DNA of 64,000 nucleotides, taken from IMG/VR virus record IMGVR_UViG_3300030390_001073; one strand, 5' to 3'. The notes below the pieces were generated by a model. That model was given only the letters and a program-made list of their open reading frames with translations, ran no database searches and was not told where the DNA came from. Position numbers and translations under genes: made by a program. The DNA comes from an uncultured virus (IMG/VR IMGVR_UViG_3300030390_001073) (Duplodnaviria > Heunggongvirae > Uroviricota > Caudoviricetes). Below, one piece after another: positions 41,119 to 45,969 of the stretch; position 1 is the stretch's first letter; each line of letters begins with the position of its first letter.

Positions 41119-41344
41119 TAATAGTACAAGCAGTACCTTCAAGCACCATTTGATATCCTGCACGCTTGTCATAGTATATTATATCATTACTATTAATTGA
41201 CTTTACTTCTGTGCCGGGAGTTATAACTTTAGCTTTTTTATATCTAAATTGGTCAGCGTCTTGTTCAGACAATAATAATCCTGACTCTGTCTTTAGTTCT
41301 TCTTTAATGTTTTCTACTATAAGGTATTTATTAATTGCTATCAT
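41087..41344 (-). CDS. groES: co-chaperonin GroES-like
   Basis: KTESGLLL mobile loop, AKVITPG and IIREQDVVVV motifs; directly downstream of GroEL. Confidence 0.85.
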   Translation of the reverse strand: MIAINKYLIVENIKEELKTESGLLLSEQDADQFRYKKAKVITPGTEVKSINSNDIIYYDKRAGYQMVLEGTACTIIREQDVVVVV

Positions 41345-42950
41345 TTGATTCGTATGTTCTTGCCATTGTTATAATAGCGTTAGTAGATAATATAGTTACT
41401 GCTACAGAAACTGCATTTTGTAAAGCGTTCTTAGTTACTTTCATTGGGTCAATGATTCCCATGTCAATCATATTTCCATACACTTCATTCTTAACATCAT
41501 ATCCTACTCCATTATGTTTTCCTGACTCATATTTATCTTGTATGGTGCTTCCTGCGTTTTCTAGTATTTGTGAAAGTGGTGCAGATAGTGCACCATATAA
41601 AATTGCGTCAGCAATTTTTTGCGAATTTTTTTCTTTTTTTGATGTGTATGCAATAGCTATATCATACAATGCTACTCCACCACCCGGCAATATACCCTCT
41701 AATAGTGCGGAACGTACTGCACAGACTGCGTCATCTACTCTGTCATAGAGTTCTTTTTGTTCAATGTCGGTTTGACCTCCTACATATATAACTCCGATAC
41801 CACCGCTTAGTGCAGCTATACGAGATAGTAAAAAATCTTTATCATTTTTATTTGTAGCATTTTCATGTGCTTGCCATAATTGTAAAACTCTATCTTCTAC
41901 GTTAGCAACATAGTCAGTTGATTTAATCAATATACTAGACTCTTTACCAATTATACATTTATCAGCATGACCTAAGTCGGCAAACGAAATTAATGATAAG
42001 TCGTCACCTGTTTTTTCAGAAAAGTAATTTGCTCCAACCGATACTGCAATGTCTTGCATAAGCTCATGTTGTTTGTATCCAAACTGTGGAGGACCTATAA
42101 CACAAACTTGTAAACCATTCTTGACTACGTTTGCTGCTAAAGTATTTACAACATTAACAGACATAGGTGCAATGATTAATAATTTCTTCTGCTCATTAAT
42201 AATTGGCTTTAGAATATTCTCAATTGACAATACGTTTGATATCTCTGCATCACTTACTAAGACATGTACGTTTTCTAATATACACTCGTCCTTCTTTTGG
42301 TTATTAATAAATAAAGGCGATGTCCACCCTCTCTCAATTTTAATTCCGTTTGTGGTCTCGCCATAAGTATTACTTGATTCTGATTTTTCTACAGTAACTA
42401 TTCCGTTTTTACCAACCTCTTTATATGTGTCAGCAATAACTTTACCAATTACTTTGTCATTGTTCGCTGATATAACAGCTACATCAAGCAATCTTTTATT
42501 AGTAATTTTTTTAGAAGCCTTTTTTAATTTGTCTATTACTACCTCAGTTTCTTTTACTATCTCTTTTAATACCTCAGCTCTGTTTGTGGTCTCATCCATC
42601 AAGGCATCGCCTTGCTTAACTAATGCTTCAGTAAGAACAATAGCAGTAGTTGTACCATCACCTGCAGAGGTAGCAGTATTATCAGCTGCCTGTTTCATCA
42701 TACGAACCGCAAGGTTCTCTACAGGGTCTAATAAATCTACAGCCTTAGCTACGGTTACTCCGTCTTTAGTTACGGTTAACCCGCCCGTTACATATTGTGA
42801 TTCGATGAGGACTGTATTACCTCTAGGACCTAATGTGCTTTTAACTGCGTTTGCTATTTGTGTAATACCGGAGATAAGTTTTCCTCTTCCGTTTTCGCCA
42901 AAGGATAATTCTTTGGGATTAAAGCCTGATGGCATTTTGATTTGATTCAT
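41331..42950 (-). CDS. groEL: chaperonin GroEL-like
   Basis: TLGPRG, TKDGVTVA, AGDGTTTA, GILPGGG and GIIDP motifs. Confidence 0.95.
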   Translation of the reverse strand: MNQIKMPSGFNPKELSFGENGRGKLISGITQIANAVKSTLGPRGNTVLIESQYVTGGLTVTKDGVTVAKAVDLLDPVENLAVRMMKQAADNTATSAGDGTTTAIVLTEALVKQGDALMDETTNRAEVLKEIVKETEVVIDKLKKASKKITNKRLLDVAVISANNDKVIGKVIADTYKEVGKNGIVTVEKSESSNTYGETTNGIKIERGWTSPLFINNQKKDECILENVHVLVSDAEISNVLSIENILKPIINEQKKLLIIAPMSVNVVNTLAANVVKNGLQVCVIGPPQFGYKQHELMQDIAVSVGANYFSEKTGDDLSLISFADLGHADKCIIGKESSILIKSTDYVANVEDRVLQLWQAHENATNKNDKDFLLSRIAALSGGIGVIYVGGQTDIEQKELYDRVDDAVCAVRSALLEGILPGGGVALYDIAIAYTSKKEKNSQKIADAILYGALSAPLSQILENAGSTIQDKYESGKHNGVGYDVKNEVYGNMIDMGIIDPMKVTKNALQNAVSVAVTILSTNAIITMARTYESNDSN

Positions 42951-43482: not shown

Positions 43483-43540
43483 AGCCTTGTTTTTTTTGTA
43501 AAGGTACAAAATTTTTTGTAAGATATGTGTAGTATTTAGA

Positions 43541-43750
43541 CTCCCCCCCCTCACACGCAAACCTTCGCCAAAAGAAAACGCAAAAAAAAAGCTGACCCCC
43601 CCTAAACCTTTTAATATTTTCTTTCGGATTTTTTAGGAAAACGCCTGACCCCTGTCACCCCTACCTCCTCCCCCCCTCTGTCATCCTGTTGCGTAGCTTT
43701 GTCGTTACACACACCTCTACCATCTACCCTATACCACCTACCTTCCCCTC
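43541..43750. other. C-rich (G-rich on -) non-coding tract at the strand switch; candidate packaging/terminus region
   Basis: many C runs (ctccccccccc, gacccccc, ctcctccccccctc) in an otherwise AT-rich genome, between the divergent late and early blocks. Confidence 0.45.
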
Positions 43751-43990
43751 ATTACATGCATATATAATCTTATAATCTCATTACAAGCTAAGAGATATAA
43801 GAGTGCATCCCCTCTGCCTAAGTTTGACATAAATAAATCGTAGTGAAATGTGCTGTGCTAACACGCTAGTTATCAATGAGTTACAAAGACAACTAATAAA
43901 TAAATAAAATATTATACTAAAATTGTACGATAATTAAAATAATAGTTGTAGTATTGCATTATATTAATATTTAAATAAATAAAAAACATT

Positions 43991-44947
43991 ATGAAAAAAT
44001 TTAATAACAAATACCTACCAAAAATCAAAAAAATCAACGTCTTCGAAGCTGTCAACAAGCAAGTTACAGACGGGTTAAAAAAAACAGGTATGTCTTGGTT
44101 CAAAGCATGGACAGACTCAAACGGAAACATTCAAGACCCTATTAACAGATGTACTAAGAGAGGTTACAACGGAGTAAACATCTTTATCTTAAACGCTACT
44201 GCTTCAGTAGAAGGTTATCCATCCAACGAATGGGTTAGTTTTGCTGAAGCTAAGAAGCTAGGCAGTAACGTTAAGAAGGGAGAGAAGTCAACTATGATAG
44301 TATATTGGAACATAGCTTTCATGGTTAAGGACAAATGGTTTCCTAATCTAACTGCACTAAACAAGGCAGGGTATACGGAAGATGATGCTAAAAAACTATT
44401 TACATTAAAACAATTCAGAGTATTTAATATTGCACAATGTGAAAATCTAACAGCATGTAGAGAGATACCAACAGAGAGTGAAGATAACCTTGACATTCAA
44501 CCAATAGAATCGGCTGAAGCTATTGTAAACGGATACAAGAATGCTCCTAAGATAATAGAGAGACCACAAGGTAGTGCTTACTATACTCCTATGAGAGACA
44601 TCATAACAATGCCAACAAGAGAGCAGTTTGTTGAGCGTACTTCGATAGATGATTTCTATAAGGTTTTATTTCATGAGATGATTCATTCAACAGGACATTC
44701 ATCTAGATTAGATAGAAAACTTGTAGGTGTTACAGCTGACAAAGTATCTTATTCAAAGGAAGAATTGATAGCTGAGATAGGTGCAATGTATTTAACTTCG
44801 ATTGCTCACTTGAACCCTCAAGACCATGAGAGACAGAGTCAAGCGTATATCAACGGATGGATTAAGTTCATTAAATCTAGCCATGAGAAGGCATTGATAT
44901 CAGCAATGACCAAAGCTAGACAGGGTGTTGATTTAATCCTTAAGTAG
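43991..44947 (+). CDS. ardC: ArdC-like anti-restriction protein (ssDNA-binding domain plus zincin metallopeptidase domain)
   Basis: N..TKRGYNGVN...W.SF..AKKLG..VKKGEKS; VFNIAQ; AYYTP..D.I.MP; HEMIHSTGH..RL.R; YSKEELIAE. Confidence 0.9.
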   Translation: MKKFNNKYLPKIKKINVFEAVNKQVTDGLKKTGMSWFKAWTDSNGNIQDPINRCTKRGYNGVNIFILNATASVEGYPSNEWVSFAEAKKLGSNVKKGEKSTMIVYWNIAFMVKDKWFPNLTALNKAGYTEDDAKKLFTLKQFRVFNIAQCENLTACREIPTESEDNLDIQPIESAEAIVNGYKNAPKIIERPQGSAYYTPMRDIITMPTREQFVERTSIDDFYKVLFHEMIHSTGHSSRLDRKLVGVTADKVSYSKEELIAEIGAMYLTSIAHLNPQDHERQSQAYINGWIKFIKSSHEKALISAMTKARQGVDLILK

Positions 44948-44949
44948 TT

Positions 44950-44979
44950 TACTATCCTGAGCAAGATACCAAACTGCTC
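44950..44979 (+). ncRNA. small H-type pseudoknot motif, copy 1
   Basis: TATC-CTGAGCAA-GATA stem-loop; the loop GAGCA pairs with downstream TGCTC; near-identical copy at 45624. Confidence 0.65.
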
Positions 44980-45028
44980 TCTGTCGATAGGTGTGTACCT
45001 ATCCTGATGAAGCGAAAGCAGAAACAGA
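44980..45028 (+). ncRNA. type III hammerhead ribozyme 1 (predicted cleavage after GUC at 44985)
   Basis: TCTGTC / stem I GATAGGT-gtgt-ACCTATC / CTGATGA / A-GC-GAAA-GC-A / GAAACAGA closing stem III. Confidence 0.8.
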
Positions 45029-45053
45029 AACATTAATTAAATATATAAACATT

Positions 45054-45578
45054 ATGCAATTTACAAGAGAACAATTATCACAAATGGATTCACTAGACTT
45101 CCTAAAACTTATGGGATACACTATCGAGACAGGTAGCTGTGTATGGAACGGAAACGGACACGCTGACAAGTATGCTTTTACCGAGACTACTAAAGATGGC
45201 TATGACCTATTTGTATTTACAGATAACCCAAACAAACCACCACAAATATGTCAAGGCATTTTCTATGATGAGGATGGATTTTGGGATGGGTTGAAAGAAT
45301 ACATTATTGAAGATGGTACAGGAGAAGAGGTTATTGCCATTGAAGACCATGTCATGGAAACCATGAGTGATTGGTTTCTAGATGAGGATGAGATGGTTGA
45401 GATAGCTACAAACCTCGACATGTTTGTAGAACTACAGACTGAAAACGGATTAGATGTAGATGAGGTAAAAGAGTATTACCTGAATTCAGGATTTCCTCAA
45501 TACGATGCAGAACCATACAAATCGTATACGGATGAAGATTGGATTGACCACGCAAATGAAAACGAATTAGAAAGATAG
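45054..45578 (+). CDS. acidic early hypothetical protein flanked by hammerheads
   Basis: ATG at 45054 after an AAACATT leader (MQFTREQLSQ...); very Asp/Glu-rich. Confidence 0.75.
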   Translation: MQFTREQLSQMDSLDFLKLMGYTIETGSCVWNGNGHADKYAFTETTKDGYDLFVFTDNPNKPPQICQGIFYDEDGFWDGLKEYIIEDGTGEEVIAIEDHVMETMSDWFLDEDEMVEIATNLDMFVELQTENGLDVDEVKEYYLNSGFPQYDAEPYKSYTDEDWIDHANENELER

Positions 45579-45591
45579 CCAACAGGAGTGA

Positions 45592-45623
45592 TTTGGTAGT
45601 TTCGTTTATTTTTCGTACATTTG
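45592..45623 (+). promoter_or_regulatory. Bacteroidota sigma-A promoter (-33 TTTG, -7 TACATTTG)
   Basis: TTTG at 45592-45595, 20-nt spacer, TACATTTG at 45616-45623. Confidence 0.8.
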
Positions 45624-45653
45624 TACTATCCTGAGCAAGATATTAAACTGCTC
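45624..45653 (+). ncRNA. small H-type pseudoknot motif, copy 2
   Basis: tactatcctgagcaagatattaaactgctc differs from copy 1 only in the unpaired linker (cc to tt). Confidence 0.65.
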
Positions 45654-45702
45654 CTGTATCGAGATGAGTGTCTCGGCTGATGATTCCAAAAGGATGAAAC
45701 AG
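45654..45702 (+). ncRNA. type III hammerhead ribozyme 2 (predicted cleavage after GUA at 45658)
   Basis: CTGTA / stem I TCGAGA-tgagtg-TCTCGG / CTGATGA / T-TCC-aaaa-GGA-T / GAAACAG; stems differ in sequence from copy 1 but keep pairing. Confidence 0.85.
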
Positions 45703-45723
45703 AAACTTTAATTTAATAACATT

Positions 45724-45969
45724 ATGAGAAAATTAAGAAAATTACACATTTACTTTATGAATGCAATTACGTTTGCAGTAGCATTAGGAGTAATAGGTAT
45801 GGTAGGCAACTTGCTTGTACACCTAGTTAACAATGACATCACAGGTGTTGGGGATTTCCTAGCATGGATGGTGGCAGTAGGAATTTACTTAGCAGTAAGT
45901 TATTTAATATTTGGTCTTATCATTTTATCACACAAAGATGACATGAGAGACTTTAACTTAAACAACTAA
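45724..45969 (+). CDS. small two-TM membrane protein
   Basis: two hydrophobic segments; AACATTATG leader. Confidence 0.7.
   Translation: MRKLRKLHIYFMNAITFAVALGVIGMVGNLLVHLVNNDITGVGDFLAWMVAVGIYLAVSYLIFGLIILSHKDDMRDFNLNN

Follow-up and report, generated by a model that had tools for sequence, protein, structure and literature searches.

Tandem pseudoknot-hammerhead cassettes as candidate RNA punctuation elements in the early operon of an uncultured Caudoviricetes virus

Two intergenic cassettes, each consisting of a compact H-type pseudoknot fused to a type III hammerhead ribozyme, lie at positions 44953-45028 and 45627-45702 of a 64,000-nucleotide (nt) stretch of DNA, hereafter the window, from the uncultured virus IMGVR_UViG_3300030390_001073 (Caudoviricetes). 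We place a probability of roughly 0.55 on the reading that the segment at 45627-45702 (pseudoknot PK2 and hammerhead HH2) is one of two tandem copies of a cis-acting punctuation cassette in the early rightward operon, the other copy being PK1 and HH1. Under this model the ribozymes would cut the early polycistronic RNA during transcription, HH2 after A45658 and HH1 after C44985, and the upstream piece would finish with a compact pseudoknot followed by a 5-nt tail bearing a 2′,3′-cyclic phosphate. From what is established about 3′ exonucleases and poly(A)-assisted decay, an end of this kind should resist both. Stacking of the pseudoknot on the 4-base pair (bp) helix III of HH2 may aid formation of that short helix and let the product leave quickly. 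The downstream messenger would begin with a 5′-OH, and the ribozyme body folded at its start would lie 24-29 nt ahead of the ATG; this fixed leader would render it independent of the upstream sequence. A promoter inserted just before PK2 in this clade would provide a second entry point, and the 31-nt pseudoknot RNA that it would yield is most simply a by-product.

Results

The pseudoknot is built from two interleaved covarying stems

PK2 reads UAUC-CU-GAGCA-A-GAUA-UUAAAC-UGCUC, where stem 1 (S1) pairs U45627-C45630 (UAUC) with G45639-A45642 (GAUA), stem 2 (S2) pairs G45633-A45637 (GAGCA) with U45649-C45653 (UGCUC), and the connecting loops are C45631-U45632 (L1), A45638 (L2), and UUAAAC at 45643-45648 (L3). 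S2 continues without a gap into the 5′ strand of helix III. Shuffled sequences averaged 0.08 matches to a pseudoknot descriptor, whereas the window has two, and a covariance model (R2) trained solely on stand-alone copies from other phages found PK2 at 28.0 bits (E = 3.8e-6).

Among relatives found solely through the hammerhead, S1 varies as UAUC/GAUA, CAUC/GAUG, ACAC/GUGU, AUUC/GAAU, and GGAC/GUCC, and S2 as GAGCA/UGCUC, AAGCA/UGCUU, GAACA/UGUUC, GAGUA/UACUC, and UAGCA/UGCUA. Six of nine pairs change on both sides in a set of 18 pseudoknot sequences that was pre-selected for pairing, and whose 100% pairing is for that reason not evidence. A degenerate pattern search that left S1 free matched at least 119 IMG/VR loci; the counts drawn from it here and below (95 unique matches, 92 distinct rows, and 79 stand-alone pseudoknots) are among the matches listed, and the covariation counts took in all 95 sequences (92 distinct rows), chance matches included. 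S1 forms at least three consecutive base pairs in 79 of the 95 unique matches, compared with 21% when the partners are shuffled. Over the whole pseudoknot 86.7% of cells are paired (73.5% shuffled) with 135 double-sided changes (61 shuffled), and the covariation score of 0.334, compared with 0.112, was reached in none of 500 shuffles. The S1 columns 5-18 and 6-17 contribute 40 and 37 double-sided changes across the 92 rows and the sole free S2 pair contributes 19. For the S2 variant GAACA, S1 forms at least 3 bp in 9 of 12 loci that carry the compensating base and in 3 of 14 that do not. Comparative sequence evidence strongly supports the segment at 45627-45653 as a true H-type pseudoknot with two interleaved, covarying stems.

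The consensus spans 27 nt (variable S1; CU; GAGCA; W; S1′; NNWAAAC; UGCUC). No Rfam family covers it, preQ1-I and other riboswitches included, in searches of the window region at E ≤ 10 and of 20 loci at E ≤ 1. A description of the motif was likewise not found in Rfam 15 or in the phage pseudoknot and structured-RNA literature, within which the supplementary motif lists of PMC10690425 and 10.64898/2026.10.21.760802 could hold it. When five pseudoknot loci were compared with a phage collection by blastn, no cultured carrier of the pseudoknot appeared; loci L183, L198, L252, and L189 gave no match, and L255 matched a recombinase gene and nothing else. A role for the pseudoknot in frameshifting or read-through was rejected because no slippery heptamer is present and the reading frame meets a stop within five codons.

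Both ribozymes belong to a covarying type III hammerhead family

Helix III of HH2 pairs C45654-U45657 with A45699-G45702 (4 bp), the cleavage triplet is G-U-A with predicted scission after A45658, and helix I (45659-45665 with 45670-45676) is closed by the loop GAGU. The conserved core comprises CUGAUGA at 45677-45683 and GAAA at 45696-45699, with A45699 and U45657 forming the A15.1-U16.1 pair, and helix II (UUCC-AAAA-GGAU, 45684-45695) has a U10.1.U11.1 mismatch as its first pair. In HH1, helix III pairs 44980-44984 with 45024-45028, helix I pairs 44986-44992 with 44997-45003, the CUGAUGA core lies at 45004-45010, scission is predicted after C44985 of a GUC triplet, and helix II (AGC-GAAA-GCA) carries an A.A mismatch at 10.1-11.1; HH1 likewise has the GAAA element and the A15.1-U16.1 pair. 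By descriptor scan the window contains two type III hammerheads, whereas 100 shuffles averaged 0.01. Rfam gave no matches over the whole window at gathering score and reported no hammerhead in a permissive search of 45400-45900 (E ≤ 10), and the window hammerheads did not reach the gathering score of RF00008. This silence is explained by the behavior of a relative (locus L006), which also falls below the gathering score, at 35.4 bits on Rfam Hammerhead_3 against 48.5; the U.U or A.A mismatch at 10.1-11.1 together with the short helix II probably costs Rfam score.

Comparison of phage records by blastn showed that 45 nt of the window (45656-45700) are 91-93% identical in 65 records of Pseudomonas Bruynoghevirus (LUZ24/PaP3 group); in phage Clew-1 the ribozyme occupies 1018-1062, immediately before the first rightward open reading frame (ORF), and in LUZ24/PaP3-type phages it lies about 1 kb from the genome end. 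Pairwise alignment of the window with the Pseudomonas element revealed compensatory changes in helices I and III. An exact search with the 23-base core plus helix II gave 51 IMG/VR loci and at least 121 metagenome stretches, from which 113 unique hammerhead sequences were obtained; the counts for this family (113, 109, and 107 sequences; 130-131 loci) are among the matches listed. A helix I hairpin abuts the core in 109 of the 113 unique core-bearing sequences, and 107 of those 109 combine an NUH triplet with a helix III of 4 bp or more, none of the 107 triplets ending in G. Across the 109-sequence alignment, in which helix II is invariant because the search design fixed it, the three-helix model pairs 95.5% of cells compared with 69.7% in shuffles, and 443 double-sided changes were counted compared with 105. 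Eleven of 16 pairs vary on both sides, and the covariation score of 0.722 (0.191 shuffled) was reached in 0 of 500 shuffles, with slid controls at or below 0.094. HH2 and its family are strongly supported by these alignments as genuine type III hammerheads with a full catalytic core, covarying helices, and an open helix III. The first ATG falls 15-45 nt after GAAA in 109 of 130 hammerhead loci (median 26 nt), and the ribozyme is therefore a 5′-untranslated region (UTR) element.

The hammerhead itself is of an already known kind. Perreault et al. list hammerheads in LUZ24 and PaP3 in their 2011 catalogue, the text of which describes the PaP3 "type3 HH at end of genome" as cloned, places it among active variants, and remarks on the U10.1-U11.1 mismatch (PMC3088659). 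The cultured Flavobacterium phage vB_FspP_elemoE_10-3D (MT497078.1 28910-28972, locus L467) carries an unannotated type III hammerhead with the core CUGAAGA (36.1 bits), positioned 15 nt before the ATG of the first gene in a leftward operon. Hammerheads of another topology, in which helix III is a closed hairpin, contain the 21-base HH1 core in GC-rich viral contigs (L394-L457), and one helix II module thus serves several hammerhead types. Both ribozyme core types were seen 0.9-1.3 kb apart on single IMG/VR contigs (L011 with L402; L035 with L428), and gene-bracketing hammerhead pairs therefore recur outside the clade of the window.

The cassette is doubled around a single gene

The two pseudoknot copies in the window are 674 nt apart, each fused to a ribozyme (Table 1). 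PK1 pairs 44953-44956 with 44965-44968 in S1 and 44959-44963 with 44975-44979 in S2, and runs into HH1 without a gap between S2 and helix III, an arrangement that is also seen in relatives. It begins 5 nt after the ardC stop codon, and the sequence ahead of it holds no promoter box. The closest related contig (G001, 64.7 kb) has an identical layout, with two hammerheads each preceded by a pseudoknot. Contig G003 carries three hammerheads within 2.2 kb, the first with a pseudoknot and the others with GUGUC...GACAC hairpins, G005 carries one hammerhead and one pseudoknot, and G002 and G004 carry a hammerhead without a pseudoknot. What appears to be new is the pseudoknot motif, together with its joining to hammerheads and the tandem cassettes beside ardC.

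Table 1. Features of the cassette region and its flanking genes, with window positions and the basis of each assignment.
Feature	Position	Strand	Basis
ArdC-like anti-restriction gene, upstream neighbor of cassette 1	43991..44947	+	Pfam ArdcN 4e-22, MPTase-PolyVal 4.4e-27; PHROG anti-restriction protein 7e-58
Pseudoknot PK1	44953..44979	+	descriptor scan; model R2, 28.2 bits, E 3.5e-6
Hammerhead HH1, type III	44980..45028	+	descriptor scan; model R1, 42.2 bits, E 2.4e-8
Predicted excised RNA between both cuts, 673 nt	44986-45658	+	predicted scission sites
ORF, 174 amino acids (aa), very acidic, flanked by both cassettes	45054..45578	+	translation
Bacteroidota sigma-A promoter-like site	45592..45623	+	TTTG (-33), 20-nt spacer, TACATTTG (-7)
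Pseudoknot PK2 (H-type)	45627..45653	+	descriptor scan, covariance model, covariation
Predicted 5′ cleavage product, 31 nt, 3-bp S1	45628..45658	+	sequence and start-position rule
Hammerhead HH2, type III, PaP3/LUZ24 kind	45654..45702	+	sequence, blastn, covariation, descriptor scan, model R1
First ORF downstream of HH2, 81 aa	45724..45969	+	ATG 24 nt after ribozyme GAAA

A pair of ribozymes on either side of a gene might instead excise the RNA between the two cuts, with 5′-OH and 2′,3′-cyclic phosphate ends, which an RtcB-type ligase or reversal of the hammerhead reaction would then close into a circular mRNA proof against exonucleases. HH1 and HH2 share the helix III register CUGU/ACAG, as do the hammerheads of G001, and the circle junction would therefore rebuild a complete hammerhead; gene-flanking multiple hammerheads have also been described (text of PMC3088659). 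However, CUGU/ACAG is the commonest helix III across the hammerhead family, so that register compatibility is expected by chance, and the pseudoknot would have no obvious role in a circular RNA. We therefore regard circularization as highly improbable.

Structures of several kinds abut helix III

The 40 nt immediately 5′ of helix III have a mean folding energy of -9.6 kcal/mol over 131 hammerhead loci, compared with -5.4 for a control segment (p = 5e-9) and -4.9 for shuffles (p = 1e-14). A structure ending within 3 nt of helix III is present at 75 of the 131 loci compared with 37 in control segments, and a tail of 4-5 nt before the cut is predicted in 55 of 69 clear cases. Elsewhere in the hammerhead family, plain hairpins take the place that the pseudoknot has in the window. 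Since hairpins and pseudoknot alike abut helix III, the pseudoknot is one of several interchangeable structures at this position.

The same geometry bears on the idea that the pseudoknot serves the ribozyme alone, either clamping the fold by stacking on the 4-bp helix III or insulating the hammerhead from upstream sequence, with the cleaved product having no role. No gap separates S2 from helix III in either window cassette or in relatives, structures abut helix III at more than half of the loci as just described, and helices III preceded by a structure are a little shorter than the rest (5.28 versus 5.74 bp, p = 0.02), all of which a clamp would accommodate. The helix III effect is weak, however, and a clamp leaves unexplained both the pseudoknots that lack a ribozyme (CTGATGA follows within 45 nt in 2 of at least 119 IMG/VR loci) and those that precede tRNAs, U-tracts, and start codons. 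We consider a role confined to the ribozyme unlikely.

A palindromic hairpin with GUGUC...GACAC arms (e.g., GGTGTCTTCAAAGACACT) recurs just upstream of hammerheads in related 60-kb phages and is absent from the window. Its carriers are L005, L006, L007, L017, L033, L034, L063, L064, and G003 (L459:440-470, 2205-2230); in L063 and L064 the hairpin is located downstream of the hammerhead. Because its arms are conserved, it may be a protein site or a hairpin of a special kind.

The pseudoknot occurs mostly without a ribozyme

With CTGATGA close to so few of its loci, the pseudoknot is, as judged from its sequence matches, an autonomous phage motif that mostly lacks a ribozyme. A same-strand ORF ends within 60 nt upstream of 41 of the 79 stand-alone pseudoknots, compared with 11 of 79 in the opposite-strand control, and an ORF starts within 60 nt downstream of 29 of 79, compared with 8 of 79. 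A run of four T residues follows within 14 nt in 16 of 79, compared with 2.8% of control windows, and the tail following the pseudoknot is G-poor. Several copies abut tRNA genes, lying 3-6 nt ahead of tRNA 5′ ends (L191, L295, L294, L304) or ~3 nt past a tRNA (L209, L210), where RNase P or 3′ processing would therefore put the pseudoknot at an RNA end. The downstream partners are mixed and include DNA polymerase, tRNA, promoter, and ribozyme, with no common gene class. What unites these settings, we infer, is a compact fold left on or within a few bases of an RNA 3′ end, whether a ribozyme, RNase P, or termination generates that end.

These surroundings can also be weighed against a sensor, riboswitch-like or operated by a protein, that gates cleavage, termination, or downstream translation. 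An H-type architecture with an A-rich L3 resembles the small pseudoknot riboswitches, the loop and S2 letters are invariant, and a start codon lies downstream at the 29 of 79 loci noted above. Nevertheless, partners as varied as these, sharing no gene class, are not what a sensor would lead one to expect, the one-base L2 leaves little room for a pocket, and no Rfam riboswitch was matched; we judge a sensor very unlikely.

Matches to the pseudoknot came from phages of very different settings, Saccharibacteria and Methanobrevibacter assemblies included. The motif is rare in cellular genomes, where a stricter pseudoknot pattern gave 74 matches in 596 billion bases, of which ~17 are expected by chance, and S1 forms at least 3 bp in 26. 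Within the host class, the model matched 3 of 151 sampled genomes under strict filters with the top candidates scored, and one of these matches looks genuine. No tandem arrays were found, with one match per locus among the matches listed. The sole near-tandem pair seen is at locus L175 (150-200), where a divergent pseudoknot-like sequence (CACCUGAGUAGGUGGCUAAACUGCUC) precedes the matched copy by ~40 nt.

A probable promoter at PK2 would release a 31-nt RNA

Bacteroidota sigma-A promoters have TTTG at -33 and TAnnTTTG at -7, separated by a spacer of about 19-21 nt. In the window TTTG at 45592-45595 is followed by a 20-nt spacer and by TACATTTG at 45616-45623, and the site ends 3 nt before PK2. 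The motif is not enriched in the window, with 6 occurrences against 5.1 expected (38 of 100 shuffles reach 6), and for the -7 box alone the count is 98 where 107 would be expected. Nonetheless, four related sequences keep the 40-nt spacer almost unchanged although their upstream coding sequence diverges far more, and the promoter is therefore probably functional. One relative reads TACATTGC, which fits the TAnnTTGY variant box described for Flavobacterium psychrophilum. The text of PMC9723704 places the F. psychrophilum sigma-A box at -12 to -5, and by this rule transcription would start near A45628, on the second S1 base. A transcript initiated there is predicted to shed a 31-nt RNA, which holds for this clade alone, whereas in read-through RNA the same bases (45628-45658) would form the 3′ end of the upstream mRNA.

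The original prediction had read this locus as a consensus promoter ending at 45623, a pseudoknot immediately after it, and a hammerhead cutting at 45658, which together would free a ~30-nt pseudoknot RNA with a 2′,3′-cyclic phosphate beside ardC, and had assigned that RNA the role of a ToxI-like decoy for a host RNA-binding defense protein. Its anatomy and its inference of RNA release hold up. The promoter is present as TTTG-N20-TACATTTG with a spacer conserved in four relatives, the pseudoknot is real by covariation and by its R2 score and starts 3 nt past the promoter end, and the ribozyme has a complete type III core that covaries across 109 sequences, so far as alignment can tell. The released RNA is correctly foreseen for the promoter-initiated transcript, with a predicted length of 31 nt, and the neighboring gene is ArdC-like by both Pfam and PHROG, with both cassettes in the early region beside it. 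The decoy function, on the other hand, found no support: PK1 has no promoter, 13 of 20 loci have no room for one, and likeness to a ToxI antitoxin is not borne out, with no tandem direct repeats among the matches listed and no Rfam antitoxin match.

In its wider form the decoy proposal holds that the ~31-nt RNA, or pseudoknot-tailed fragments generally, act in trans as a decoy or sponge for a host defense or RNA-decay protein that binds RNA. The promoter box puts +1 at the edge of the pseudoknot and is conserved in the clade, both cassettes lie beside ardC in the early region, and hammerhead chemistry would leave the product with a 2′,3′-cyclic phosphate, the end that processed ToxI carries. 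The conserved pseudoknot letters also suggest specific recognition, for which they are the best argument. Set against these points, PK1 lacks a promoter, and the pseudoknot begins 5-7 nt past a stop codon in 13 of 20 related pseudoknot-hammerhead loci, which therefore leave a promoter no room. Hairpins replace the pseudoknot in many hammerhead family members, and the pseudoknot occurs in many phages without any ribozyme. Its spread across phages of very different hosts makes a single host target unlikely, and the few genome matches reported above indicate that the host class does not commonly carry this RNA. Tandem arrays are absent among the matches listed, and no Rfam antitoxin or other family was matched; ToxI is itself among the Rfam families. 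We find a decoy improbable. The same low estimate applies to its generalization to many phages, in which the 27-nt pseudoknot would be a new widespread phage RNA class, freed as a discrete, end-protected small RNA by a hammerhead, by RNase P at an adjacent tRNA, or by termination, and acting in trans on a conserved host protein of RNA handling or defense.

Neighboring genes and phage affiliation

This marine phage groups with Flavobacteriia phages, since 32 of 36 records matching its primase-helicase carry Bacteroidota host names. The 174-aa acidic ORF had no Pfam, PHROG, or Atlas match; its position between ribozymes beside ardC recalls the hammerhead-flanked ardA described in 2011, and our guess is that its product could act as a DNA-mimic anti-restriction protein. 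On the + strand, C-rich and G-poor tracts (runs of 6-8 C) fall at 43500-43760 in the ~1-kb intergenic region that separates the leftward structural module from the rightward early module, and this region could be an origin or a regulatory region. A full-length GroEL-type chaperonin is encoded at 41331-42950 on the - strand (Pfam Cpn60_TCP1 9.5e-53; PHROG chaperonin groEL 1.6e-127).

Discussion

The punctuation model rests on the ribozyme lying before start codons, on a stable structure that usually ends 4-5 nt before the cut, and on a doubled cassette that brackets a gene near ardC. The capping role is further favored by pseudoknots that begin soon after stop codons (13 of 20 related pseudoknot-hammerhead loci), by the strong folding ahead of helix III, and by stand-alone copies that follow ORF ends or precede T runs and tRNAs. 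Several observations weigh against it. The S2, L1, and AAAC letters are invariant beyond what stability needs, a hint of specific recognition by a protein, a ligand, or a tertiary contact that a capping role leaves unexplained. Pseudoknots ahead of ORF starts (29 of 79) fit a 5′-UTR role equally well. A discrete small RNA is probably made at the PK2 promoter, because the promoter spacer is conserved in the clade of the window. Minimum-free-energy folding of 45624-45720 is no better than that of shuffles (z = -0.83), and taken by themselves this result and the silence of Rfam would cast doubt on the ribozyme. The shortening of helix III next to an upstream structure is slight. Three metatranscriptome runs and one unlabelled run gave no RNA contig on the window, a result that bears neither way on expression. 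Cleavage, the RNA ends, and RNA stability in this phage are, finally, all deduced from sequence.

The purpose of phage hammerheads has been open since the 2011 catalogue, and punctuation combined with end protection offers a testable, terminator-independent model. The pseudoknot is in its own right a good candidate for a new class of RNA element, whether it turns out to block exonucleases, to act as a pseudoknot terminator, to offer a protein site, or to be a decoy.

Among described systems, the PaP3 and LUZ24 hammerheads share with HH2 the core, loop 1, and helix II with its loop (UUCC-AAAA-GGAU, with U10.1.U11.1), and are likewise followed directly by an early ORF. In the Pseudomonas phages, however, helix III contains the start codon and is preceded by a long, imperfect hairpin, whereas HH2 has a 4-bp helix III, an abutting pseudoknot, and its ATG 24 nt further on. 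In an Agrobacterium tumefaciens prophage multiple hammerheads flank ardA, and in Legionella ardA lies downstream of a hammerhead, according to the text of PMC3088659. The likeness is that several hammerheads cut polycistronic phage RNA into gene-sized pieces near an anti-restriction gene, cutting being predicted in the present case. The window differs in having an ardC-like gene and type III ribozymes, each fused to a pseudoknot.

The frameshifting pseudoknots of beet western yellows virus (BWYV)-type luteoviruses and the preQ1-I aptamers are built on a compact H-type fold like the present one, in which S1 has 4-5 bp, L1 has 2 nt and starts with C, the junction is 1 nt long, and L3 is A-rich, spans 6-7 nt, and ends in AAAC. 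In contrast to these, the phage motif is an intergenic RNA of a DNA phage, lies after stop codons, has no slippery site, and gave no Rfam match. ToxI and phage pseudo-ToxI, the antitoxins of type III systems, are small pseudoknot RNAs with a cyclic-phosphate end and include a phage-encoded case, but the pseudoknot described here has no tandem repeats and no sequence or Rfam similarity to them, is not known to be processed by a cognate endoRNase, and occurs in phages of unrelated hosts. RiboJ-type synthetic insulators place a self-cleaving ribozyme in the 5′ UTR and thereby give the downstream ORF a defined leader. Hammerheads in the UTRs of RNA viruses are needed for translation, as the text of PMC13725137 reports. 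These are engineered or eukaryotic-virus cases, and they lack an upstream pseudoknot. The MALAT1 and MEN-beta triple helix protects a 3′ end that arises from RNase P cleavage at a downstream tRNA-like structure. It is eukaryotic and differs in forming a U-rich/A-rich triple helix; the resemblance is that a downstream element directs the cut, here a ribozyme, or a tRNA in L191 and L295, with the compact structure left upstream of it putatively guarding the new 3′ end.

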